The translations under genes and the position numbers were made by a program. 64,000 nucleotides of DNA from Bacilli bacterium (GTDB taxonomy: Bacteria > Bacillota_I > Bacilli_A > RFN20 > DUOF01): NCBI GenBank assembly GCA_045118975.1, contig JBGVCT010000008.1:2300-66299 (forward strand), written 5' to 3'. Positions 9,507 to 63,817 of the stretch are shown piece after piece. How positions within the stretch are numbered: position 1 is the first letter of the stretch; each line of letters opens with the position of its first letter. Under the pieces are notes generated by a model that worked only from the letters and a program-made list of their open reading frames with translations, ran no database searches and was not told where the DNA came from.

Positions 9507-11099
9507 TTATTCAGCCTTAATTGCATCTTTTATTAACTCTGCTGCTTTTAAATACTTTCTAGATTTTTCTGCATCTCTATCAGTACCAATGTTATATTCA
9601 TAACACCATCCCAAGAACTCATTTATTTCATAACTATTTACATCGTATAAAGTCTTTAATAAATCAACACCAACTCTTGCCTTACCAGGTAAGAATAAAC
9701 AAGTTATAGCATAATTAATACCAGCCTCTAATATTTTATGACTTTCATATATTCTTTTGTACATCTTGTTTGCCTTTGAATATGATGCACTTGTTCCATG
9801 GCCATCGAATACCATATCTGCTAAAGCTACTTTAGAAAGTGGGAAAGAAACAGATGATCTAGTATACCAATATTTAGCCTTCTTATAGTCTGTTTCCACA
9901 AAATTAGCATTCTCATAGCATTTACCCAAATAGTATTGAGCCTCACCATAATTTAGCTCAGCAGCTTTAGTTAAAAACTCTAAAGCTTTTGTCTCATCTT
10001 TTTCAACACCCTTACCTAGTGCATAACACATTGATAGGTTATAGCAACTTAATGCCCAATCATTTTTAGCACCAAATTTGAATAATTCAATAGCGCCCTC
10101 TTCATTTAATGCAGTACCTACACCTTGTAACATACAACATGCAATAGCATCATTAGCAAGCTCTATTCCTTGTTCTTTGCAAGCCACAAAATAATTGTAT
10201 GCCTCTCTTTCATTTTTTGTTGTTCCAATTCCATATAGTTTACATATAGCAACTTCATACAATGATTCAAAATCACCTTCGCCTGCTATAATCTTAAATA
10301 ATTTATATGCTAGAGCTTCATTCACTGGACAACCATATCCATTTTGATAGCACTTAGCTAAATAATATGTTGACTTTAAATTACCTCTTTTTGCACTTAC
10401 TTGGAAGCAATCAAACGCTTCATCATAGTCTTTTGAATCAAGGAAATATAAACCTAATCTTCCAATTGCTACATCATTACCTAAGCTAGCACTTGTTTCA
10501 TACCACTTGCTTGCCTTGCTCTCATTCTTTTTAGTACCAATACCAAACTCATAACAATATGCTAAATTATATGCAGCCTCAGCATTTTCATTTTTAGCAG
10601 CATTAAGGAAATGTTTGAAAGCCAACTTTTCATCCTTAGCAACACCATTACCATTTAAGTAACATAGTCCTAATATAAACTCAGCATAATCATTTCCAAG
10701 TTCAATAGCCTTGTTATACCAATAAATTGCTTTTTCATAGTTTTGAACTACTCCCTTACCATTGAAGTAACTATATCCCAAGTTGAAAATACTAGTTTCA
10801 TCATTTTGTTTAGCAGCCTCCACAAACCAATAAATTGCCTTACTATAATCTTGCTCTACTCCAATACCATTTGCATAACATACTCCAACATTACATTGAG
10901 CACTTACAAATCCTTGTTCAGCAGATTTTAAAAACCAATGAAACGCTTTCTTTAAATCATACTCTTCACATCTAGGTGTAGCATAATAAATTCCTAGATA
11001 ATATTGACTTGTAGCATCACCATTTAATGCAGCATCTTGAATTTCTTCAATATTATCAAATATCATTTGTTCGTAATCACTATTATTTATATTTGCCAT
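9507..11099 (-). CDS. Sel1-like (SLR/TPR-type) repeat protein
   Basis: More than 10 tandem ~36-aa repeats of the form A..W..KAAEQG...AQ..LG.CY..G.GV..D. Examples: AFHWFLKSAEQGFVSAQCNVGVCYANGIGVEQDYSKA and AIYWYNKAIELGNDYAEFILGLCYLNGNGVAKDEKLA. Start moved to MANINN (GGTGGTG SD). Confidence 0.85.
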   Translation of the reverse strand: MANINNSDYEQMIFDNIEEIQDAALNGDATSQYYLGIYYATPRCEEYDLKKAFHWFLKSAEQGFVSAQCNVGVCYANGIGVEQDYSKAIYWFVEAAKQNDETSIFNLGYSYFNGKGVVQNYEKAIYWYNKAIELGNDYAEFILGLCYLNGNGVAKDEKLAFKHFLNAAKNENAEAAYNLAYCYEFGIGTKKNESKASKWYETSASLGNDVAIGRLGLYFLDSKDYDEAFDCFQVSAKRGNLKSTYYLAKCYQNGYGCPVNEALAYKLFKIIAGEGDFESLYEVAICKLYGIGTTKNEREAYNYFVACKEQGIELANDAIACCMLQGVGTALNEEGAIELFKFGAKNDWALSCYNLSMCYALGKGVEKDETKALEFLTKAAELNYGEAQYYLGKCYENANFVETDYKKAKYWYTRSSVSFPLSKVALADMVFDGHGTSASYSKANKMYKRIYESHKILEAGINYAITCLFLPGKARVGVDLLKTLYDVNSYEINEFLGWCYEYNIGTDRDAEKSRKYLKAAELIKDAIKAE

Positions 11100-11170
11100 T
11101 AAAGTCACCACCTTTTTAAATTATACAATAAACATCTTACATTCACTTATATTTTTTACAAAAATATTAT

Positions 11171-12379
11171 CTATTTACACTTTTTAACTATATCTTTAAC
11201 TCTTTCTTTGATTGTTACATCTCTTTCTAATCCCTTTAAAGCGCAAACAATAATATCCGCAATAAGTTTAAAATCATATTCTTTTAATCCTCTTGTAGTC
11301 ATATAAGCACTACCAACTCTAATACCAGAAGTAACACTTGGCTTTTCCTTATCAAAAGGTAAAACATTTTTATTTACATAGACTCCCAACTTAGAAAGTA
11401 TAGTTTCACTATCTTTACCAGTTATACCAAAACTAGTTTTAGTATCTATTAATAGTAAATGATTATCGCTGCCTCCACTAACAAGTCTTACACCATATTC
11501 ATTAAATACCTCTTCCATTGCCTTAACATTTTTAATTACTCTTTTTTGGTATTTAACAAAATCTTCACTTCCCGCCTCATAAAAGCATTGACACTTAGCT
11601 GCTATAATATTTTCAATAGGTCCACCTTGAATTCCTGGGAAAACACTAGAATCTATGGCTTTAGCAAATTTTTCTTTACAAAGAATCGCCCCACCCCTAG
11701 GACCTCTTAATGTCTTTTGAGTAGTCATTGTAATAAAATCAGCATATCCAACTGGAGTTGGGTGTAAACCTGCAACAACTAAACCAGCAGTATGAGCAAT
11801 ATCCGCAAGTAAATAAGCACCCACTCTATCTGCTATTTGTCTAAACCTTTTAAAATCAATTGTTCTAGGATAGCTACTAGCTCCACACACAATTAATTTA
11901 GGAGTATATTCCATAGCTAGTTTTTCCACATTATCATAATCAATATAGCCATCTTCATTAACTCCATAACTAATAATCTTGTAATCTTTTCCACTAAAAC
12001 TAACAGGACTACCATGACTTAAATGTCCACCATCATTTAAATTCATCGATAAAATTGTATCTCCTTTTTCTAAGATGGACATATATACTGCCATATTAGC
12101 TTGTGATCCACTATGAGGTTGAACATTTGCGTGATATTTAAGCGCCTTAAATATTTCTTTTAATCGCTCTTGTGCTAGCTTTTCAATTAAATCAATATTC
12201 TCACAACCTGAATAATATCGCTTAGATGGATATCCCTCGGCATACTTATTTGTAAGTATACTCCCAGTAATTTCCATAACCTCTTCACTAACAATATTTT
12301 CTGAAGCAATTAAATTTATAGTAGACTCTTGCCTTTTAGCCTCATCTTTAATTAATCTATATAACATTCTATCTTTCAC
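11171..12379 (-). CDS. glyA: serine hydroxymethyltransferase
   Basis: [24 protein letters not shown], the PLP-lysine region [12 protein letters not shown], and overall length. Confidence 0.95.
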
Positions 12380-12431
12380 AAAAACACCCCATTTATATAA
12401 AAATTCTATAATATTTTTTATTTTTTATAAA

Positions 12432-12455
12432 TAAAAAAGGTGTATAAAATACACC
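12432..12455 (-). terminator. intrinsic terminator after the permease gene
   Basis: Stem GGTGTAT/ATACACC (12439-12445 / 12449-12455), followed on the minus strand by a T6 run. Confidence 0.7.
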
Positions 12456-12458
12456 AAA

Positions 12459-13328
12459 TTAAAACCCAAATATCAAGCAAATCAAAAATCCAAATATTAT
12501 AGAGGAACCAATAAGCGAACATAGTACAATTAAATTATCTTTAAACAAATCTTTTCTTTTAAAAATAATAAGTAATCCCATCCCTGCATTTACAAGTAAT
12601 CCCGACACTAAAGCACCAAAAGATATGGCAGAATTAACATATAAATTAGTAATAATTACTGAGGATGCGCAATTAGGAATAAGACCAATGATGGTAGCAA
12701 ATAATGGAGTCAAATATTTATTCATTTCCAAGAATGCAATGATATTATTTTCTCCAATAAAATAGACAATACCCCCAAATATAATATTCATCACAAGGAC
12801 AAGAGATATTATCTTCAAACTTCTAATAAATGGATACCATAAATGCAAATCAAAAGAAGTTACCTCTTCCTCTTCACTAACACAATAAGCACAATTACAT
12901 TGTATGTCGCTAACAATCTCATCTTTCTTGATGTTTACTTTTTTTTCTTTTTTCTTTTTTAACAATAAATCCAAACTAGCACCAATAACAAAACCAACAA
13001 TCAATTTTAAAATAATTAAAGGGATTGCCATTATCGCCTTATCGCTAGTCAATAAAATTATAATTCCCTCATCACTACACGCTAAAAACAGTGCCACCAA
13101 AGTACCAATACTTAAATAACTTTTAGTATATAAATCTGCAGCTATAACACTAACTCCACATTGTGGAATAAGACCATATAAAGCCCCAAAAAAAGGTGGT
13201 GTTTCATTACCTTTTCTAAGCTTATTAACTAATTTAGATTCAAAAAAGGATAAAATGATGTAAGTTACCCAGATGAACACAAAGATCTTTATAGAATCTT
13301 TAAATGCATCTAGAATAACTTCTACCAT
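12459..13328 (-). CDS. polytopic membrane permease with an internal duplication (possibly the ArsP_2/DUF2899-type putative metal exporter family)
   Basis: Two halves each carry an LIPxC(G/A)xSVI motif (GLIPQCGVSVIAADLY and GLIPNCASSVIITNLY). They are separated by a basic loop containing CNCAYC. The family name is from memory and unverified. Confidence 0.4.
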   Translation of the reverse strand: MVEVILDAFKDSIKIFVFIWVTYIILSFFESKLVNKLRKGNETPPFFGALYGLIPQCGVSVIAADLYTKSYLSIGTLVALFLACSDEGIIILLTSDKAIMAIPLIILKLIVGFVIGASLDLLLKKKKEKKVNIKKDEIVSDIQCNCAYCVSEEEEVTSFDLHLWYPFIRSLKIISLVLVMNIIFGGIVYFIGENNIIAFLEMNKYLTPLFATIIGLIPNCASSVIITNLYVNSAISFGALVSGLLVNAGMGLLIIFKRKDLFKDNLIVLCSLIGSSIIFGFLICLIFGF

Positions 13329-13392
13329 TTTATCCTTCCTTCTTTCTTAAAACATTAAAATAATACTCTTATAAATCAATATTGTAAAGGGT

Positions 13393-14226
13393 TTATTTTA
13401 TATATACTCTAATTAAAAAACTTATCTCTGTTTCGAGTTTATCTAATTGGTTTAGCTTATCTATCGCAGACAAACTAGTTTTGTAATAATATGGTGTCAT
13501 TTTAAATAAATTCATTATATCACTATTTGTTTCTAGCACCATATTATCACTAATCTCAACTTCCTCCATCAATGTTAGTCCCTCAATAGTTTCACTCTTT
13601 TTCTCATTTAAATACGCATTCTCATAAAGTATATTTTTTAGTCCTAGCAAATGATTCTTGCCTGGTAATACCCTAATATATACTCCCTCACTATCCAAAA
13701 CCCTATAGAACTCACTCTCATCTATTGGAGCAAAGCAATTTAACATTAAACTCAAAGAATTATCAATAAACGGCAGCTTAGATAAATTAGCGATAAAATA
13801 CTCTATATTTTCTAAATTTTCCATTCTTTTTTTCTTATTTGCCTCATGTATAGCAAATTTAGAAATATCAATACCAAAGCTTTTAACTTGATAAATCTTA
13901 GACATAGTTCTGTGTAAAAAATTAGTATAATATCCCTCACCACACGCTATATCTAAGAAGTTCATTTTTTCTTTTTTATGATACTTTCTAACTAACTCTA
14001 ATAATTTTTCTTTTAAGCAATGATATTTATCTAAATCAAAAAAATCTTTTCTAGCTAAAATCATTTCCTTATCATCACCACTTGAATCACTAAAGCTTTG
14101 ATTAGCAAGCATTAAATTAGTATATCCCTTACTTGATATATCAAAAGAATGATTATTCATACATTTATATGTTTTTTCGTATTTAAATAAGGTTTTATCA
14201 CAAACCGGACATTTTACAATAGACAT
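13393..14226 (-). CDS. rlmA: 23S rRNA (guanine-N1)-methyltransferase, RlmA family
   Basis: N-terminal zinc ribbon CPVCDKTL...YKCMNNHSFDISSKGYTNLM followed by the class I SAM motif LDIACGEGYY. Start moved to MSIVKC (AGAGGTG SD). Confidence 0.75.
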   Translation of the reverse strand: MSIVKCPVCDKTLFKYEKTYKCMNNHSFDISSKGYTNLMLANQSFSDSSGDDKEMILARKDFFDLDKYHCLKEKLLELVRKYHKKEKMNFLDIACGEGYYTNFLHRTMSKIYQVKSFGIDISKFAIHEANKKKRMENLENIEYFIANLSKLPFIDNSLSLMLNCFAPIDESEFYRVLDSEGVYIRVLPGKNHLLGLKNILYENAYLNEKKSETIEGLTLMEEVEISDNMVLETNSDIMNLFKMTPYYYKTSLSAIDKLNQLDKLETEISFLIRVYIK

Positions 14227-14291
14227 AATATCACCTCTAATATTTAAGCAAATAACTAATAAAAAAGGCAAGAATATTTCTTGCCTAAATC

Positions 14292-15683
14292 TTATTTGTT
14301 TTGAATGTATTCATGAATACTTGCAGCAGCAGTTTTTCCAGCTCCCATCGCAAGAATTACAGTTGCAGCACCAGTAACTGCATCTCCTCCAGCATATACG
14401 CCTTTAACTGAAGTTGCTCCTTGTTCATTAACAATTATACCACCCCAAGATTCAGTGTCTAATCCCTCGGTAGTAGCCTTAATTAATGGGTTTGGATTTG
14501 TACCTAAAGACATGATTACACAATCAACATCTAAAGTGAATTCGCTATTAGCTTTAACAACTGGTCTTCTTCTTCCACTCGCATCAGGTTCACCAAGTTC
14601 CATTTCTACACACTTCATTGCTTTAACAGTTCCTGTTTCATCACCAATTAACTCTATTGGATTAGTTAAAATTCTAAATTCTATACCTTCTTCAATAGCG
14701 TGCTCTACTTCTTCTTTTCTAGCAGGTAATTCTTCCATACCTCTTCTGTATACAATATATACTTTTTCAGCACCTAGACGCAATGCACTTCTTGCTGCAT
14801 CCATAGCAACATTTCCTCCACCAACTACAGCAACGCTCCTACTCTCTTTTACAGGAGTTGAAGAATCTTTTTCATAAGCTTTCATTAAATTTACTCTAGT
14901 TAAAATTTCATTAGCACTAAATACTCCCTTTAAATTTTCTCCAGGAATATTCATAAATTTAGGAAGTCCAGCACCACTTCCAATAAATACTGCCTCATAA
15001 CCATATTCACTCATCAACTCATCGATAGAAATTACTCTACCAATAACCATGTTAGTTTCCACTTTAACTCCCATAGCTTTTAATCCATCAATTTCTTTTT
15101 GGACAATTCTCTTAGGAAGTCTAAATTCAGGAATACCATAAACCAATACTCCACCAGCTAAATGAAGCGCCTCATAAATTGTCACTTCATACCCTAATCT
15201 AGCTAAATCCCCAGCACAAGTTAATCCACTAGGACCACTTCCAACAACAGCAACCTTATGACCATTGCTTAAAGGTTTTTCAACACTTCCATCACTATGT
15301 GCGTTATGATAATCCGCAACAAATCTTTCAAGACGACCTATAGCAACAGGTTCTCCTTTAATTCCTCTTATACATTCCCCTTCACATTGACTTTCTTGAG
15401 GACATACTCTACCACACACTGCAGGTAATGAAGACGATTCATTAATAACCTTATACGCTTCTTCAAATTTACCTTCAGCTACTAGTGATATAAACTCAGG
15501 AATTCTAATACGCACAGGACAACCTCCCATACACTTAGGATTTCTACAATTAAGACATCTTTTTGCCTCATCAATAGCCATTTCTTCACTATATCCTAAA
15601 GCTACTTCTTCAAAATTCTTTCCTCTTTCTTTAGGATCTTGAACTGGCATTGGATTCTTTACATTAGACATATTAAAAGCCAT
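14292..15683 (-). CDS. nfnB: GltD-like NADPH-dependent oxidoreductase, probable NfnB (large subunit of NADH-dependent reduced ferredoxin:NADP+ oxidoreductase)
   Basis: N-terminal Fe-S cysteines (CLNCRNPKCMGGCP, CGRVCPQESQCEGEC). Two dinucleotide-binding motifs (VVGSGPSGL, VVGGGNVAMD). Start moved to MAFNMSN (AAAGGAGG SD). Paired with a PyrK-like subunit immediately upstream. Confidence 0.8.
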   Translation of the reverse strand: MAFNMSNVKNPMPVQDPKERGKNFEEVALGYSEEMAIDEAKRCLNCRNPKCMGGCPVRIRIPEFISLVAEGKFEEAYKVINESSSLPAVCGRVCPQESQCEGECIRGIKGEPVAIGRLERFVADYHNAHSDGSVEKPLSNGHKVAVVGSGPSGLTCAGDLARLGYEVTIYEALHLAGGVLVYGIPEFRLPKRIVQKEIDGLKAMGVKVETNMVIGRVISIDELMSEYGYEAVFIGSGAGLPKFMNIPGENLKGVFSANEILTRVNLMKAYEKDSSTPVKESRSVAVVGGGNVAMDAARSALRLGAEKVYIVYRRGMEELPARKEEVEHAIEEGIEFRILTNPIELIGDETGTVKAMKCVEMELGEPDASGRRRPVVKANSEFTLDVDCVIMSLGTNPNPLIKATTEGLDTESWGGIIVNEQGATSVKGVYAGGDAVTGAATVILAMGAGKTAAASIHEYIQNK

Positions 15684-15684
15684 C

Positions 15685-16527
15685 TTAGTTTTCCTCCTTT
15701 TTAAATAATTTACAAGCTTTTTCTCTAGCTCTAGCCTCAAATTCAGGATAACTTCTAGATCTGGAAATAGCTTCATCAAAATCAACTTCAAATCCATCAA
15801 AATCAGGACCATCTACGCAAGCAAATTTAGTTTTACCACCAACTGTAAGTCTACATCCTCCACACATACCAGTACCATCAATCATAATTGGATTCATAGA
15901 TACCATTGTTTTAATATTATGAGGTTTAGTTGTAGCTACTACAAACTTCATCATAACAAGTGGCCCAATAGCAATAACTTCATCATATTGCTCGCCATCT
16001 TCAATTAATTTAGCAAGTGGAGCAGTTACTACACCCTTTTCTCCAGCACTTCCATCATCAGTCATAAGAAAACATTTATCGCTAACAGCTCTAAATTCAT
16101 CTTCTAAAATAACTAAATCTTTATTTCTAAATCCAATAATTGAATGAACTTCACATCCTAAAGAGTGTAATTTTTTAGCAACAGGATAAGCAATAGCACA
16201 TCCAACTCCACCACCAACTACAGCAACCTTCTTTAAACCTTCAGTATGAGTAGGAACTCCAAGAGGACCAACAAAGTCAGTAATATATTCTCCTTCATTC
16301 AAACTATCAAGTTCCATAGTAGTACCACCAACTATTTGATAAATAATAGTAATAGTTCCTTTTTCTCTATTATAATCAGCAACAGTAAGAGGAATTCTCT
16401 CACTATTATCAAATGGACGCAAAATAATAAATTGCCCTGGTTCTGCCTTCTTTGCTACAAATGGAGCCTCTACCTCCATTAATGTAACTGTAGGATTTAA
16501 TCTTTCTTTTCTAACTATTTTATACAT
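15685..16527 (-). CDS. nfnA: PyrK-like FAD/NAD-binding iron-sulfur protein, probable NfnA
   Basis: 280 aa. Ferredoxin-reductase-type fold (GQFIILR, GPLG, VVGGGVGCA). C-terminal 2Fe-2S motif MCGGCRLTVGGKTKFACVDGPDF. Its stop is 1 nt from the nfnB start. Confidence 0.8.
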   Translation of the reverse strand: MYKIVRKERLNPTVTLMEVEAPFVAKKAEPGQFIILRPFDNSERIPLTVADYNREKGTITIIYQIVGGTTMELDSLNEGEYITDFVGPLGVPTHTEGLKKVAVVGGGVGCAIAYPVAKKLHSLGCEVHSIIGFRNKDLVILEDEFRAVSDKCFLMTDDGSAGEKGVVTAPLAKLIEDGEQYDEVIAIGPLVMMKFVVATTKPHNIKTMVSMNPIMIDGTGMCGGCRLTVGGKTKFACVDGPDFDGFEVDFDEAISRSRSYPEFEARAREKACKLFKKEEN

Positions 16528-16528
16528 T

Positions 16529-17404
16529 CTATTTTTCTCCTTTCTTATCTATAGATGCAACTGCTTTATAAACAGATGTATATAGTGAATCATTTTTATT
16601 AAATCTTATCATCTTCAATGTTGAATTAGATTTTCTCACTTTTATTTCATCAAATGGTGAAACAAAGTATTTAAAACAACCATCAACACTTACTATAACC
16701 TCATTATCCATAACATTAACTTTGTTTGTCATTGATAAACTAACTTCATCTTCCTCGCTAACAACAAGAGGAGTAAAACTTTTAGATTGTGGACATATTG
16801 GAGTAATAACATATGACTTAGATCCATATGAAAGCAATGGTCCACCAGCACTCGCATTATAGGCACTACTACCAACTGGGGTAGCAACAATAACTCCATC
16901 CGCGTAAAATAAATCTTTATCACTTTCATTTACACCAATTAATATTGGAAGAAGTTTAAGTGATAAACCCCTATGAAAAATAATATCGTTGTAGCTAGTA
17001 AAGCTTACAACCTTACCATCTCTATATACTATCTCTCCATCAAGTCCTAATTGATGTACCACTTCATATTCTCCATTAATAATCTTATCTAAGTACCTCT
17101 TATAATTATCCAACTCCAAAATAGTAAGTGCACCGACTCTTCCCATATTTACACCAACATAAGGAAAATGATATTTACCATACTTACTAGCATACTTTAA
17201 TACAGTTCCATCCCCACCCAAAACAAGAGCAAAGTCAATTGTAGAAGCCATGCTATCTTCAAAATTATAAAGTTCTAATAACTCAGCAAATTCACTATCA
17301 TCACAATAAATATTTACACTTTTATTTTTTAAATAACTTGCTATCTCTTTAGATATACTATGATCTTTGTCTTTATTGTTATTTACAACAAATAATACAT
17401 TCAT
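16529..17404 (-). CDS. nadK: NAD kinase
   Basis: GGDGT motif (LVLGGDGTVL), NDIIFHR, and GVIVATPVGSSAYNASAGGP. Start moved to MNVLFVV. Confidence 0.9.
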   Translation of the reverse strand: MNVLFVVNNNKDKDHSISKEIASYLKNKSVNIYCDDSEFAELLELYNFEDSMASTIDFALVLGGDGTVLKYASKYGKYHFPYVGVNMGRVGALTILELDNYKRYLDKIINGEYEVVHQLGLDGEIVYRDGKVVSFTSYNDIIFHRGLSLKLLPILIGVNESDKDLFYADGVIVATPVGSSAYNASAGGPLLSYGSKSYVITPICPQSKSFTPLVVSEEDEVSLSMTNKVNVMDNEVIVSVDGCFKYFVSPFDEIKVRKSNSTLKMIRFNKNDSLYTSVYKAVASIDKKGEK

Positions 17405-17482
17405 CCATATCGCCTCTTTTATAATACACAAACAAAATTATACATTTTTGTAAAAAATGTGTAAATAAACCTATATCAAAAT

Positions 17483-17508
17483 AAAAAAAGATAGGCATTA
17501 ATCCTATC
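17483..17508 (-). terminator. intrinsic terminator after the SDR gene
   Basis: Stem GATAGG/CCTATC (17490-17508), followed on the minus strand by a T-run. Confidence 0.65.
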
Positions 17509-60926: not shown

Positions 60927-60956
60927 TAAAAAAACTCAGCTTTTTTTAGCTGAGTC
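60927..60956 (-). terminator. intrinsic terminator ending the deaminase-fusion operon
   Basis: Stem ACTCAGC/GCTGAGT (60934-60940 / 60949-60955), followed on the minus strand by a T7 run. It lies 6 nt after the stop at 60962. Confidence 0.75.
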
Positions 60957-60961
60957 AAAAA

Positions 60962-61522
60962 CTATCTTTTGTTTGACGTTTTTAAATCAAACTTTTTTAC
61001 AGCTTCTTCTACTCTTCCTGCCATAAAACCTTTAAATTCATCATATCTTGAGTGATATCTTGTATAATCCGCAAAATATATATGTTTAAAATCATTATTT
61101 ATAAGAGAAATCACAGGAAGTGAACCTGCTCCAACCTTACATGTTGGCTTACACAGAACCTTTTTATCATCCACACTTAAAATATATACTCCTGGTTTTA
61201 ATAACGATGGAGCATCATCTAAAGGTTCATCTTTAGGTTTAGCCACATATACTGTACTTCCTTCTAATTTAACTTGAACAAGTTCATAATTTTCATCATT
61301 CAAGTACTGCATGAAAGCACTATTGAAAACCTCTGAATCTACAGTAAGGGCAGACTCTAATTCGCTTTTAAGAGAATCTAGTTCTTCTTTTTTTTCTTCC
61401 AACTCTTTTCCATATCTACTAGCAGCATAATCACTATCATAGACATGTTGCGTTAAAGAATTAACCTCATAAACCAAATCCTTAATTCTCTTTAATGTAT
61501 CCATATATTGTTTTTGTTTCAT
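60962..61522 (-). CDS. hypothetical protein: N-terminal coiled coil + beta-rich C-terminal domain (partner of the deaminase fusion)
   Basis: Start taken at the ATG after GAGGTG (MKQKQYMDTL...). Heptad-like acidic region GKELEEKKEELDSLKSELESAL. No recognised motif. It begins 11 nt or less after the upstream stop. Confidence 0.5.
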   Translation of the reverse strand: MKQKQYMDTLKRIKDLVYEVNSLTQHVYDSDYAASRYGKELEEKKEELDSLKSELESALTVDSEVFNSAFMQYLNDENYELVQVKLEGSTVYVAKPKDEPLDDAPSLLKPGVYILSVDDKKVLCKPTCKVGAGSLPVISLINNDFKHIYFADYTRYHSRYDEFKGFMAGRVEEAVKKFDLKTSNKR

Positions 61523-61533
61523 AAATCTCACCT

Positions 61534-63726
61534 CTACCTTCTTGATCCCGATGTACCTTGAGTCTTTGGAACTCCCGATGAACTACGGAATACTTTTTCT
61601 GTAATTTTCTTCATATCTATTATTGGTTTAACCTCGCTATTTTTCATCGCAGAGTGTTCTTGACTTGCTCCAGTTATTTGATGATCCGTTTTCCATCTAA
61701 CACCATTATTATGACAATTAACAATTAAATCAGAAGCGAATGCTCCACCACCTAAAACAACAACTTCACCATTATTCTTGCCATAGAACTTACCTACACT
61801 TCTTGATACCTCAAACTTATCAATTCCATACGCTCTTTCTCCCTCTCTAACAGGGACAGACTCTAGTTTTACAACATTAACCCCAACCTTAGCACATACA
61901 GCATCTATTAGTCCATTAATATAGGAACCATCATTGTAAATACAAACTCTTTTATTCTCTCTTTTTGCCCTCATAACAACTTTGACAACATCTTCTTTGA
62001 GTTTTTTATCTAATTCAGGATCATCTAGTTTCTTTTCACATCCACATATAAAAATAGGCATATCCTTTTCAAGATTCTCATTAATCTCATTTGTATTATA
62101 TTGAACCTCTACTCTTTTAATTCCTGGAAGATCCACCGATTCAGGAATATAATCAATATAATCATGCATATCATCTCTAGATCTTTGATTTGCTTCAGTT
62201 ACTTTATCATGTATGTACCCTTGTTCAAATTCAATCATTTCTTTTAACTCTTCTACACTTATACCTAGTTGTTGAGCTATTAAAGCTTCTTGTCTTGCAT
62301 TTGTTCCATACAAACCAGCACCATCGCTGCCTAAAACAACCCTTACTCCAGCATCTAAATATCTCCTTATAGGTATTTGTTTAAGTTCACTTATATTATT
62401 TAAAGACATATTACTAGATGCATTTATTTCTATAATTGCACCAGTTTTCTTTATAAGAGCTAACGTTTCATCATCTAATCCGCCATGTAATCCATGGCCT
62501 ATACGAATATCTGGATAAAAATCTGGATCCTTTATAACTCCATCTCTTTTTAATTGATCAATTTCAGTTGTAACTGACTTTAAGAAATCCTTAATATTAT
62601 CTCTATGTTCATCGCTTTCTCCAGCATGTGATCTAATAGTAAAATGTTTCCACCCGTTTTTAGCACACATATTAGCAGCAGCAGCAAATATGTAGGCATA
62701 GTCTTTGTTTGAAGTTTTCTCATGTCCCAATAAATCTATACCCGCAACAAATGGCACATTAGCCTCGTTGATAAAACTCCTTGTAAACCACATAAGAGAA
62801 TTATCGTCCCTTTTCACTCTTGGAGTCGCAAGCAAAAATGATACAGTAACACCATACTTTTTCTTTGCCTCTTTTATTGCATCAGCAAATGCCCTATGTC
62901 TTTCTTCTCCATCTTTTTGATTATTTCCTTGAAACATCCATGTACATGTAGATAATTCACAATATTCAACACCATTTTTAGCATAGTTTTCTGCTATTTT
63001 TAAAATATAACTTCTAATCAAAGCAGGATTATTGCTATCAAAAAATGGACTACGGCTAGAATAAAGTTCATCCATATCAATAAATGTTATTTGATCTTGT
63101 ATGTTAACCTCCATCAAGTCTAGCATTTTGTCTCTAAATCCAGGAACTTCTTTGTGCAATACATCTAATGTAGCAGTTTCGCCATATTTATGATCCTCAG
63201 GCAAGATACCACTTTTTACTAGTCTAGATGTATCAAAAACTATTGTTTTAGGAGCAACACTAAGAGCAATATCATACACCTCATTAGCAGGCAATTGCCC
63301 AGTATAGTGCGTATGCAAATCCGTTTTAGAAGAAGGTGGAATTTCTGAAGAAGCAAATACTCTATCATATCCCTCATTTGCCTTTCCCAAAGACAACATT
63401 TTAATTTCTAAAGTAGTAAGTGGAGCATTAGATTCAAATTTCCCCTTTTTAATAGTTCCAAGCGTTCTTTCCACAGTCCTAGATTCTTTATCTTTACCAA
63501 TTATATTCAATGATAAAACACCATTAACTTCTTTAATGCTCATTAATGATTTTAAATTTTCTTTTAATGTTTTTAATTGTTCATTGTCAATGTCATGATG
63601 AATAAGAGGTTCAATCTCCCACTTGCCATTAACAAGTGATATTTGAATCTCAATAAGTGGGCCCTTACTGTCTTGGCCAATATATATAGGACTTTTCAAC
63701 TTCAAAACCTTAGCCATAACTGTCAC
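61534..63726 (-). CDS. three-domain protein: unknown N-terminal domain + adenosine/AMP-deaminase-family amidohydrolase domain + C-terminal LOG/SLOG-like Rossmann domain
   Basis: Deaminase signature in canonical order: DLHTH (aa 136-140), SHAGE (366-370), RIGHG (408-412) and LGSDGAG (465-471). C-terminal aa ~556-680 has PIFICG, VCIYNDGSYINGLIDAV and VVVLGGGAFASDLI (Gly-rich loops after beta-strands). An alternative start ATG lies at 63717. Confidence 0.65.
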   Translation of the reverse strand: MTVMAKVLKLKSPIYIGQDSKGPLIEIQISLVNGKWEIEPLIHHDIDNEQLKTLKENLKSLMSIKEVNGVLSLNIIGKDKESRTVERTLGTIKKGKFESNAPLTTLEIKMLSLGKANEGYDRVFASSEIPPSSKTDLHTHYTGQLPANEVYDIALSVAPKTIVFDTSRLVKSGILPEDHKYGETATLDVLHKEVPGFRDKMLDLMEVNIQDQITFIDMDELYSSRSPFFDSNNPALIRSYILKIAENYAKNGVEYCELSTCTWMFQGNNQKDGEERHRAFADAIKEAKKKYGVTVSFLLATPRVKRDDNSLMWFTRSFINEANVPFVAGIDLLGHEKTSNKDYAYIFAAAANMCAKNGWKHFTIRSHAGESDEHRDNIKDFLKSVTTEIDQLKRDGVIKDPDFYPDIRIGHGLHGGLDDETLALIKKTGAIIEINASSNMSLNNISELKQIPIRRYLDAGVRVVLGSDGAGLYGTNARQEALIAQQLGISVEELKEMIEFEQGYIHDKVTEANQRSRDDMHDYIDYIPESVDLPGIKRVEVQYNTNEINENLEKDMPIFICGCEKKLDDPELDKKLKEDVVKVVMRAKRENKRVCIYNDGSYINGLIDAVCAKVGVNVVKLESVPVREGERAYGIDKFEVSRSVGKFYGKNNGEVVVLGGGAFASDLIVNCHNNGVRWKTDHQITGASQEHSAMKNSEVKPIIDMKKITEKVFRSSSGVPKTQGTSGSRR

Positions 63727-63740
63727 CCATCCTTAAATAG

Positions 63741-63769
63741 ATTATATCAAATCTAGTGGTTCACTTCAA
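63741..63769 (-). promoter_or_regulatory. sigma-A-type promoter of the deaminase-fusion operon
   Basis: The minus strand reads TTGAAG (63764-63769), 17 nt, TATAAT (63741-63746), about 20 nt upstream of the start region. Confidence 0.6.
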
Positions 63770-63793: not shown

Positions 63794-63817
63794 TAAAAAA
63801 GAGGCATATAGCCTCTA
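63794..63817 (-). terminator. intrinsic terminator after the cold-shock gene
   Basis: Stem AGAGGC/GCCTCT (63800-63816), followed on the minus strand by a T6 run. Confidence 0.75.

Follow-up and report, generated by a model that had tools for sequence, protein, structure and literature searches.

The cassette and its expression signals

The window analysed here is a stretch of 64,000 nucleotides from a Bacilli bacterium (assembly GCA_045118975.1, contig JBGVCT010000008.1). Towards its end, on the minus strand, a cassette of two open reading frames is wedged between a csp gene and a block that begins with a SpoU-methyltransferase gene and dnaE. The first gene encodes a large enzyme in which an N-terminal beta-rich domain, a domain of the adenosine deaminase (ADA) family and a C-terminal domain probably of the SLOG type follow one another, and the second encodes a small partner protein. 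This ADA-SLOG architecture is new, and the case for a role in defence, weighed below, is circumstantial.

The large coding sequence extends over 61534..63726 (minus strand), which gives 730 aa when read from a GTG codon, and the partner coding sequence over 60962..61522 (minus strand), which gives 186 aa from an ATG or 189 aa from a GTG at 61531. ATG candidates are present at 63717 (MAKVLKL, 727 aa) and at 61522 (MKQKQY, 186 aa), each with a Shine-Dalgarno sequence at the proper distance (AGGA and GAGGTGA, respectively). The close homologues of the two proteins are 727 and 186 aa long, including P0001, which is 98% identical to the enzyme and has 727 aa. Homologue lengths and Shine-Dalgarno spacing thus both make these ATGs the most likely true starts. 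With them, the two open reading frames are separated by 11 nt, in agreement with the gap of at most 11 nt given in the initial annotation, and the enzyme stop codon overlaps the ribosome-binding site of the partner gene, which is probably translationally coupled to the enzyme gene.

The cassette carries its own expression signals. Its promoter, TTGAAG-17-TATAAT with a TG extension (extended -10), lies at 63769..63741 (minus strand), matches the consensus at 10 of 12 positions and adjoins the csp terminator (63816..63800) on the downstream side; a similar element is present in the related locus L001. It is the best of 12 promoter-like sites, a count to be set against 14.9 sites in shuffled sequence, so that the promoter is weighed by its position and quality alone. 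An intrinsic terminator with a 9-bp stem (GACTCAGCT-loop-AGCTGAGTT) and a T-run is found at 60956..60933 (minus strand), and terminator-like sites are enriched, with 5 seen and 1.0 expected. The conserved SpoU promoter region comes after this terminator. The promoter, the terminator and the position between csp and the methyltransferase-dnaE genes had all been proposed beforehand and can be confirmed in the sequence. Beyond the SpoU-methyltransferase gene and dnaE, the flank on that side contains polA, fpg and dnaB/dnaI. No Rfam families, flanking repeats or insertion scars were found at the cassette, and its GC content (0.33) is in slight excess of that of the flanks (0.29-0.31), with no marked anomaly.

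Domains of the enzyme and its partner

The central part of the enzyme (62182..63330, minus strand; approximately aa 133-515) is a (beta/alpha)8 domain of the ADA/AMP-deaminase family. It matches Pfam A_deaminase (PF00962) over aa 238-497 with 66.2 bits, above the cut-off of 27 (expectation value (E) 3.5e-18). The deaminase signature recognised at the outset is found at the residues first named for it, as H138/H140, H367-A-G-E370, G410-H411-G412 and S467-D468-G469. In alignments of 11 and of 47 homologues, on which conservation was judged, H138, H140, H367, E370, H411 and D468 are either invariant or conserved to at least 90%. With these metal and catalytic residues preserved, the deaminase catalytic machinery is, to judge from the alignments, intact. 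The replacement of the second Asp of the (S/T)DD motif by Gly, which had been pointed out for this single protein, extends to the whole family, in which D468-G469-x-G471 is invariant; Plasmodium ADA shows SDDPG where the family has D468-G469. This second Asp is a purine contact in canonical ADA.

The AlphaFold2 model of the enzyme, built from the 47 homologues, has a predicted local distance difference test score (pLDDT) of 88.5 and a predicted template modelling score (pTM) of 0.87, and the latter points to three domains packed in a fixed arrangement. A Foldseek comparison with the PDB retrieved ADAL (8qch, 1e-13), Plasmodium ADA, ADA1, adenine deaminase, AMP deaminase and Cad1 at E values between 1e-13 and 1e-8; the target-normalised TM scores of ADAL, Plasmodium ADA, ADA1 and Cad1 are 0.6-0.75. 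When the model of all 730 aa was used, the 50 matches listed all fell on the ADA domain. The Pfam score, the fold match and the full set of metal and catalytic residues therefore agree on the family assignment. Within that family, the profile of the enzyme family ranks bacterial Add first among PDB sequences, above Cad1, and on this ranking the domain is an independent ADA clade and no offshoot of Cad1. Nor is the enzyme, as judged by its scores, an Add orthologue, since it falls far under all NCBIfam Add equivalog cut-offs. The models TIGR01430 and PRK09358 give at best 62.9 against a cut-off of 426 bits and 61 against 216.55, and the cut-offs of this set, which span 216-549, are every one far above the score of the enzyme.

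Two further features of the domain touch upon its substrate and its size. In nucleoside-specific ADA, an Asp two residues past HxH contacts the 5'-OH, and nucleotide-specific relatives are devoid of it. The residues at HxH in the present family, H-T-H-Y-T-G, are compatible with a nucleotide substrate and prove nothing. The distance between HxH and HAGE is 227 aa, so that the spacing of about 230 aa from which an insertion had been suggested is real, but the excess over canonical ADA, in which this spacing is some 30-45 aa shorter, is modest.

The ADA domain is preceded by the N-terminal beta-rich domain (63337..63717, minus strand; approximately aa 4-130), which ends in a conserved helix (LTTLEIKMLSLG). 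In the model, its strands occupy residues 14-99 and the helix residues 105-113, and L103, E107 and L111 are nearly invariant. The initial annotation could recognise no motif in these 130 or so residues, and this has held: the domain is beta-rich and has no Pfam match in the window protein or in any homologue scanned. A CARF match in this domain was likewise looked for and not found.

The C-terminal domain (61627..62094, minus strand; approximately aa 545-700) is a probable Rossmannoid, SLOG-like domain. In the AlphaFold2 model, aa 558-695 fold into five beta-alpha units whose strands end in conserved glycines (PIFICG, LGGGAFASD and GAS). A Pfam scan gave no match of the window protein to the SLOG family models. 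The link to this superfamily comes from distant relatives of an 800-aa class, whose C-terminal domain aligns with that of the window protein over 158 columns (hhalign 97.9%, E 3.3e-13) and contains the motifs PIxITGAS, TGGTNxGVEKxxHE, GGGxIVxDMIQRAHN and GAS. Weak SLOG matches were obtained among 26 members of the family, to LSDAT_prok in 9 (best E 0.0011), to LSDAT_euk in 5 and to YAcAr and LDcluster4 in 2 each. The best score in the family, 24.3 bits to LSDAT_prok in a Chlamydiales member, remains below the cut-off of 25.4, and the curated SLOG thresholds were reached by no family member scanned. The top profile matches of the domain in the PDB are the TRPM2-like channel 6co7 and LOG proteins, and the TGGTNxGVEK of the relatives aligns to the TGGTNTGVMK motif of 6co7. 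The domain is thus probably a SLOG-type Rossmannoid of the LSDAT clade; the assignment is probable and not proven because no match passes a curated threshold. The LOG/SLOG resemblance first noticed in this part of the protein has accordingly stood as regards a probable Rossmannoid fold and homology to relatives that weakly match LSDAT and LOG, but not as a family assignment at curated level. Two weak matches of C-terminal domains to 'SIR2' models in PADLOC came from one member and were set aside as uninformative.

The clade of the window protein departs from its relatives in the Gly-rich loop after strand 2, which reads TGGTxxGVE in the relatives and is degenerate here. The segment IYNDGSYINGL, which had been taken as a SLOG Gly-loop, does occupy the position of the loop, but the signature is lost. 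The domain of this clade is also about 35 residues shorter than that of the relatives. Given the degenerate loop and the missing residues, the ancestral ligand site has probably been altered in this clade. The GGG...D/E loop after strand 4 is kept (LGGGAFASD), with G659 and G660 invariant.

These features bear on whether the C-terminal domain could itself be an enzyme. LOG-clade SLOG domains are N-glycosidases, and SLOG domains have been proposed to process derivatives of ADP-ribose (ADPR) (PMC9503650). A bifunctional protein could thus deaminate AMP to IMP and cleave the latter to hypoxanthine and ribose-5-phosphate, or else the ADA domain could destroy a signal of the ADPR or cyclic ADPR (cADPR) type held by the SLOG domain. 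The kept GGGxxxxD/E motif past strand 4, the LOG structures among the weak profile matches and the NUDIX domains fused to some relatives, which would suit the processing of ADPR-like molecules, are all consistent with such an activity. Nonetheless, the matches lean to the LSDAT/TRPM sensor clade over LOG, no LOG family model was matched at a useful score, and the window clade has lost both the TGGTxxG loop and some 35 residues of the domain. In addition, neither of the two proteins was found in the IMG/VR viral contigs, which disfavours the degradation of a defence signal on behalf of a virus. The combination of deamination and N-glycosidic cleavage, raised in the initial annotation, has therefore gained no specific support in a clade that has lost the main SLOG Gly-rich loop, and we regard both versions as very improbable. 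A sensor-type domain attached to a deaminase, as in the conflict-module reading developed below, is preferred.

The 186-aa partner has been modelled with a pLDDT of 84 and a pTM of 0.76. It had been described as a coiled-coil protein, a picture that is too simple, as the model comprises a helical hairpin (residues 2-58), a small beta-sheet (60-136), a long helix (150-177) and a disordered basic ...NKR tail. The partner has no match in Pfam, NCBIfam or PADLOC, no sequence relative in the PDB and nothing useful in PHROGs (best E 0.011), and when its fold was compared with the PDB and BFVD by Foldseek, nothing reached E <= 0.001. Among 5.8e9 proteins, a profile search retrieved 24 partner clusters, and an exhaustive HMMER search of 1.84e9 representatives retrieved 11 clusters with E < 1e-10. 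Multi-repeat proteins that appeared as remote homologues (E 6e-7 to 8e-4) were rejected as spurious, being due to a common 'G.ELWVARY' hairpin motif; 4 of 5 such weak matches tested by a Pfam scan were SBBP beta-propeller repeats. The invariant residues of the partner are Met, Lys, Tyr, Phe and Pro. As no catalytic-type residue is among them, the partner seems to be a protein that binds or regulates and not an enzyme. In a Eubacteriales locus (L021:10579-11214), a 211-aa protein is encoded 13 nt downstream of an 807-aa ADA-SLOG gene. Its predicted layout recalls that of the partner (N-terminal helices, ...YL..NY..., a beta hairpin and ...IDKKF), and the similarity between the two is not significant (hhalign E 0.15).

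Distribution, polymorphism and decay of the family

The enzyme family is extremely rare, with 46 clusters in the same 5.8e9 proteins, and its occurrence among bacteria is patchy. A scan of 185,579 species genomes, which was pattern-based and thus provides a lower bound, revealed at least 11 loci of the three-domain or a larger format. Their hosts are three uncultured gut Bacilli, three Saccharibacteria and one each of Eubacteriales, Alphaproteobacterium, Bradymonadia, Chlamydiales and Legionella, to which the protein search added members from Myxococcota. The genome nearest to the window organism, itself an uncultured, low-GC Bacilli bacterium of the gut, is a metagenome-assembled genome (MAG) from sheep rectum, with 73% identity and the same synteny.

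Throughout the family, accessory parts vary around a constant core of N-terminal, ADA and SLOG domains. In two Saccharibacteria (L024:7304-7978 and L025:8863-9546) and in the Alphaproteobacterium (L008:7414-7929), the ADA-SLOG gene is immediately preceded by a gene for a PGDYG-like protein of about 170-230 aa, and in another Saccharibacterium (L023:8822-12052) the PGDYG-like part is fused to the N-terminus of the enzyme in a protein of 1076 aa, a link of the Rosetta-stone type. Farther upstream, the Saccharibacteria encode a paralogue of about 202 aa. In Myxococcota and Bradymonadia, a C-terminal NUDIX domain follows the SLOG domain (P0031-P0034, P0037 and P0040; L026:691-3279; L040:8001-10502). 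TRPM2 joins a SLOG (melastatin) domain to NUDT9H (PMC13143021), and by this analogy the pairing of SLOG and NUDIX hints at an ADP-ribose-like ligand.

Shorter ADA genes with the same D-G motif (375-540 aa, devoid of the N-terminal and SLOG domains) occur in gut Bacilli, Acholeplasmatales and Erysipelotrichaceae (L029-L034). Behind each of them, with stop and start codons that overlap, lie genes for two small helical proteins (about 147 and 128 aa), as in L031:9992-11959 and L034:9380-11515. These small proteins belong to no Pfam or PADLOC family, and hmmsearch and hhalign gave no significant similarity between them and the partner. The L031 operon lies in the same MAG as L018, the closest genomic relative of the window. 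The idea that the cassette might be redundant with a canonical add gene in the same genome was ruled out on this ground, as the second ADA gene is itself of the DG type and comes with small partner genes of its own. At the loci of the wider family that were examined, no TIR, cyclase, cas or AAA+ genes were detected.

The contexts described so far would also suit a metabolic enzyme, namely a regulated deaminase of AMP, adenosine or deoxyadenosine that serves purine interconversion or the control of adenylate charge in salvage-dependent bacteria, with the SLOG domain as an allosteric site and the partner as a subunit for regulation or scaffolding. The enzyme has an intact active site, and its nearest sequence relatives are the housekeeping Add enzymes. 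Most members stand alone among ordinary genes, and as no signal-generating enzyme adjoins them, the SLOG ligand might be a common metabolite. Comparable regulatory regions are known from eukaryotic AMP deaminase, a large and allosterically regulated enzyme. NUDIX fusions would suit nucleotide catabolism, the hosts are mostly reduced-genome or host-associated bacteria, the promoter of the cassette looks constitutive and its synteny within the genus is stable. In the Chlamydiales locus, moreover, a nucleoside hydrolase is encoded directly upstream, which would make a route from adenosine through inosine to hypoxanthine possible. That locus (L027:2674-8852) is operon-like; its products are an inosine-uridine-preferring nucleoside hydrolase (485 aa), a protein of 658 aa that weakly resembles methyltransferases, and the ADA-SLOG protein (910 aa) with the best LSDAT_prok score of the family.

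On the other hand, a salvage enzyme would not be expected to be confined to 46 clusters in 5.8e9 proteins and to a handful of the species genomes, a number that is a lower bound, nor to score so far below every NCBIfam Add equivalog cut-off. Accessory modules that differ by clade and an orphan, non-enzymatic partner are equally atypical of such enzymes. Three further observations, presented in the following paragraphs, run against metabolism as well: the empty site in a close relative, the rate at which the pair outpaces all its neighbours, with the partner fastest, and three independent disruptions of the deaminase gene. A metabolic role is thus possible, if doubtful, and the conflict-module reading is retained as the preferred one.

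The pair of enzyme and partner is restricted to a clade of Bacilli and Firmicutes with enzymes of 700-760 aa, in which the partner gene is always 3' of the enzyme gene. Across these loci, the pair has been found in at least seven housekeeping contexts. It lies between csp and SpoU-dnaE as in the window, between an ABC transporter/lactamase_B segment and Sel1-RNase R, beside yqfD-ybeY-era-recO, at hisS-aspS, between ldh and a DEAD helicase-secA segment, at mutSL-miaA, and between comEC-holA-gpr and fmt-uvrD. In addition, an empty site was detected in a metagenome scan with the SpoU protein. This contig (L036:1-1791) has a SpoU with 90% identity, and in it csp and the csp terminator directly adjoin the conserved SpoU promoter region; what is missing is exactly the cassette from promoter to terminator. 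The empty site rests on one short contig. The presence/absence polymorphism and the several insertion contexts show that the cassette is accessory. The description of a self-contained two-gene unit from which the analysis started therefore applies, in that the pair is conserved within its clade and variably present. The empty contig contains two divergent csp genes followed by SpoU, and it is devoid of the 1448-aa Big-domain surface protein that parts the csp genes in L001 and L004.

The pair also evolves faster than the five flanking housekeeping genes. With respect to L001 and L018, identity amounts to 96-98% for SpoU, 90% for PolA, 84% for the DnaB-like protein, 82% for DnaE and 77-80% for Fpg, compared with 71-73% for the deaminase and 58-63% for the partner, which is the fastest of all. 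Furthermore, the deaminase gene is disrupted in three lineages in which the flanks and the partner open reading frame are intact. In L016:5844-7949, two in-frame TAA codons are present, one at a Lys and one at the conserved Q212. In L038:5251-7344 and L039:105-2198, from two independent samples, a TAA replaces the invariant Y255. In L037:6001-8092, a frameshift in a poly-A run separates the ADA and SLOG parts, possibly through slippage or an assembly error.

Such a pattern could suit a toxin and its immunity protein, or of a type II-like toxin-antitoxin pair, in which the deaminase would be a constitutive toxin of the purine pool and the partner its stoichiometric inhibitor; in predatory or parasitic hosts, the partner might instead confer immunity to a delivered effector. 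The partner gene starts 11 nt downstream of the enzyme gene, consistent with translational coupling. It evolves faster than the enzyme gene and stays intact where the latter is repeatedly inactivated, and its invariant residues are aromatic, Pro or Lys, with none of a catalytic type. Among the hosts of the family are also several that live on other cells, namely Saccharibacteria, Chlamydiales, Legionella and Bradymonadia. However, the intact partner genes carry no statistical significance, because there were only three events and the gene lengths differ four-fold, and most family members have no homologue of the partner. Neither a signal peptide nor a domain for secretion or trafficking was detected in the protein scans, and no type VI or type VII secretion system (T6SS/T7SS) or Rhs context was found. 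Finally, a protein of 727 aa with three domains, one of them of a sensor type, is unlike the toxins of simple toxin-antitoxin systems. We therefore judge this explanation improbable, and turn to the broader conflict-module reading.

A viral origin of the cassette was also considered and set aside, given the IMG/VR result and the PHROGs searches, which returned nothing for the partner and, for the enzyme, one function-unknown family matching the ADA domain (phrog_34694, E 1e-5).

A candidate conflict module and its parallels

Our favoured interpretation, to which we assign a probability of about 45%, is that the cassette constitutes a conflict module of an anti-phage, abortive-infection or toxin-antitoxin-like kind, accessory and acquired by horizontal transfer, with a regulated adenine-nucleotide deaminase as its effector. 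In its favour are the intact ADA site, the sensor-like domain, the rarity of the family, the empty site, the fast evolution and the repeated disruption, together with an architecture that parallels those of Cad1, RdrB and ThsA and accessory parts that vary around the ADA-SLOG core.

In the mechanism that we propose, either the partner or the domains that flank the deaminase would keep it off at rest. As the trigger, the partner might sense a change linked to infection, or the SLOG domain might bind a ligand derived from a nucleotide, which in the wider family would be ADP-ribose-like. The active enzyme would then convert ATP and dATP (or AMP) to ITP and dITP (or IMP), which would corrupt the purine pool and arrest growth, as in Cad1 and RADAR RdrB. 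The ancestral SLOG domain would have bound an ADPR-like nucleotide. In the window clade, the partner may have taken over part of the control, as an inhibitor or as a sensor, an idea suggested by the degenerate ligand loop of the SLOG domain in that clade.

Several points weigh against this interpretation. To begin with, adenine may not even be the substrate, since the D-G motif removes the purine-contacting Asp of canonical ADA. The ADA domain is nearer to the housekeeping Add (69 bits) than to Cad1 (42 bits). PADLOC recognised nothing in the partner and, in the enzyme, the generic ADA-containing CARF_ADA model alone, with E 1.5e-12 and an alignment that starts at profile position 163, past the CARF part. 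With regard to the surroundings, there is no recognisable defence island, and no TIR, cyclase, CRISPR or AAA+ neighbours were seen at the loci examined; the neighbours of the partner clade are housekeeping genes at all loci, and only L008-L010 border a recombinase-rich variable region. A survey of neighbourhoods had been suggested as a test of the initial annotation, and its outcome is divided, as variable presence was found but a defence island was not, and the pairing with the partner is confined to the 700-760-aa clade. Within the genus, the synteny of the pair and its ameliorated composition (GC 0.33 against 0.29-0.31) speak for stable inheritance. Many hosts are reduced-genome, host-dependent bacteria, in which patchy salvage enzymes and gene decay are common, and the intactness of the partner is not statistically meaningful, with three disruption events in a gene pair whose smaller member is four-fold shorter.

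The closest parallels are found among systems that deaminate the ATP and dATP pool, a recently recognised immune strategy that is so far known from RADAR, Cad1 and Kongming. In Cad1, a sensor Rossmannoid is fused to ADA, and ligand binding leads to the conversion of ATP to ITP and to growth arrest (PMC11645235). The enzyme of the window resembles Cad1/CAAD in carrying an ADA effector and a probable Rossmannoid domain of a ligand-sensor type in one polypeptide, and Foldseek aligns it to Cad1 structures over about 420 columns with E ~1e-9. The sensor-like domain is, however, C-terminal and SLOG-like here and an N-terminal CARF in Cad1. The present protein also has an extra N-terminal beta domain, a dedicated 186-aa partner and D-G in place of DD, and neither CRISPR-Cas nor a source of cyclic oligoadenylate is nearby, with no cas genes in the loci examined.

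RADAR relies on RdrB, an ADA protein that acts with a partner and deaminates ATP and dATP (PMC9994260). The cassette shares with it the two-gene format in which a large ADA-family effector is encoded beside a partner protein. In RADAR, though, the partner is the AAA+ ATPase RdrA, whereas the 186-aa partner has no ATPase motifs and no known fold. PADLOC gave no RdrA or RdrB match, and RdrB is absent among the listed sequence and fold matches. The lack of an RdrA ATPase, a CARF domain and a CRISPR context, remarked upon in the first reading of the sequence, is therefore borne out by PADLOC, the domain scans and the loci examined.

ThsA of Thoeris offers a different parallel, in that its effector part is joined to a SLOG domain to which cADPR isomers bind (PMC11204291, PMC9503650). 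The likeness lies in the fusion of an effector domain to a domain probably of the SLOG type; the effector here is an ADA domain and not a SIR2 or transmembrane domain, and no adjacent TIR gene (ThsB) was seen in any neighbourhood examined. In the LSDAT/TRPM2 clade of SLOG domains, the C-terminal domain of the family finds its best weak matches, to the LSDAT models and to the TRPM2-like structure, and the NUDIX-bearing relatives echo the combination of SLOG and NUDT9H. Unlike TRPM2, the effector is an ADA domain and not a channel, no SLOG threshold is reached, and the window clade has no TGGTxxG loop. Housekeeping Add has the same fold and catalytic machinery and gives the best sequence scores, but Add and AMP deaminase differ from the 727-aa enzyme in its two extra domains, its D-G motif, its accessory distribution and its orphan partner.

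Kongming shows that deaminated purine nucleotides can have an immune role, as the adenosine deaminase KomA makes a dITP signal (10.1101/2024.12.20.629578; PMC13454610). By its description, KomA is likewise an ADA-family enzyme; Kongming also needs KomB (ITPase-like), KomC (SIR2) and a phage kinase, none of which is encoded here. The cassette thus shares traits with Cad1, ThsA and RADAR, yet fails the defining features of each. PADLOC 2023 has no model for it, and in the full-text literature no description was found of an ADA-SLOG fusion, of LSDAT joined to a deaminase, of the partner family or of the PGDYG proteins.

A bolder proposal, which we consider speculative and rather unlikely, is that the family constitutes a third independent way of gating a purine-nucleotide deaminase for immunity, after CARF-ADA (Cad1) and RdrA/RdrB. 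In this proposal, ADA-SLOG proteins would answer to an ADP-ribose-like ligand with the help of clade-specific, trans-acting sensors (the 186-aa partner here and the PGDYG-like protein in Saccharibacteria) and would convert ATP and dATP to ITP and dITP on infection. If so, the members with SLOG and NUDIX domains would be a bacterial counterpart of the ligand-sensing pair of TRPM2, and an unrecognised defence superfamily built on deaminases would also include the short DG-type ADA operons.

The general importance of the family is limited by its extreme rarity. Should the proposed mechanism hold, an ADA effector would also be wired to a sensor of the SLOG type, the family that supplies the sensors of Thoeris ThsA and animal TRPM2 channels, which would link two hitherto separate signalling worlds and give a function to a regulator with an orphan fold. 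The family also provides natural variants of off/on control, which differ in their accessory part (the partner, the PGDYG-like protein or NUDIX) and in the presence of the Gly loop. If, instead, the enzyme is metabolic, it would be the first bacterial ADA with an allosteric module like that of AMP deaminase, of relevance to the purine economy of reduced-genome gut and episymbiotic bacteria.

Some minor observations from the same loci can be added. In a Legionella MAG (L028:9569-14611), a 1680-aa protein carries the same ADA clade near its N-terminus; Pfam recognises nothing in the other 1200 or so residues, which might be part of a secreted effector. In the Alphaproteobacterium (L008-L010, approximately 11000-17500), the region downstream of the ADA-SLOG gene differs in gene content between otherwise identical contigs and includes serine recombinases, DUF4357, DUF5655 and HxsD/radical-SAM genes, which marks a variable integration hotspot. 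In the window, both proteins end in basic K/R-R tails, with ...SGSRR in the enzyme (61537-61545) and ...SNKR in the partner (60962-60970). These tails could be a docking element, a degron or mere composition. The terminal Arg of the partner is invariant, and the proteins of the short-ADA operons likewise end in ...RR, ...MLR, ...RVR or ...RRK.

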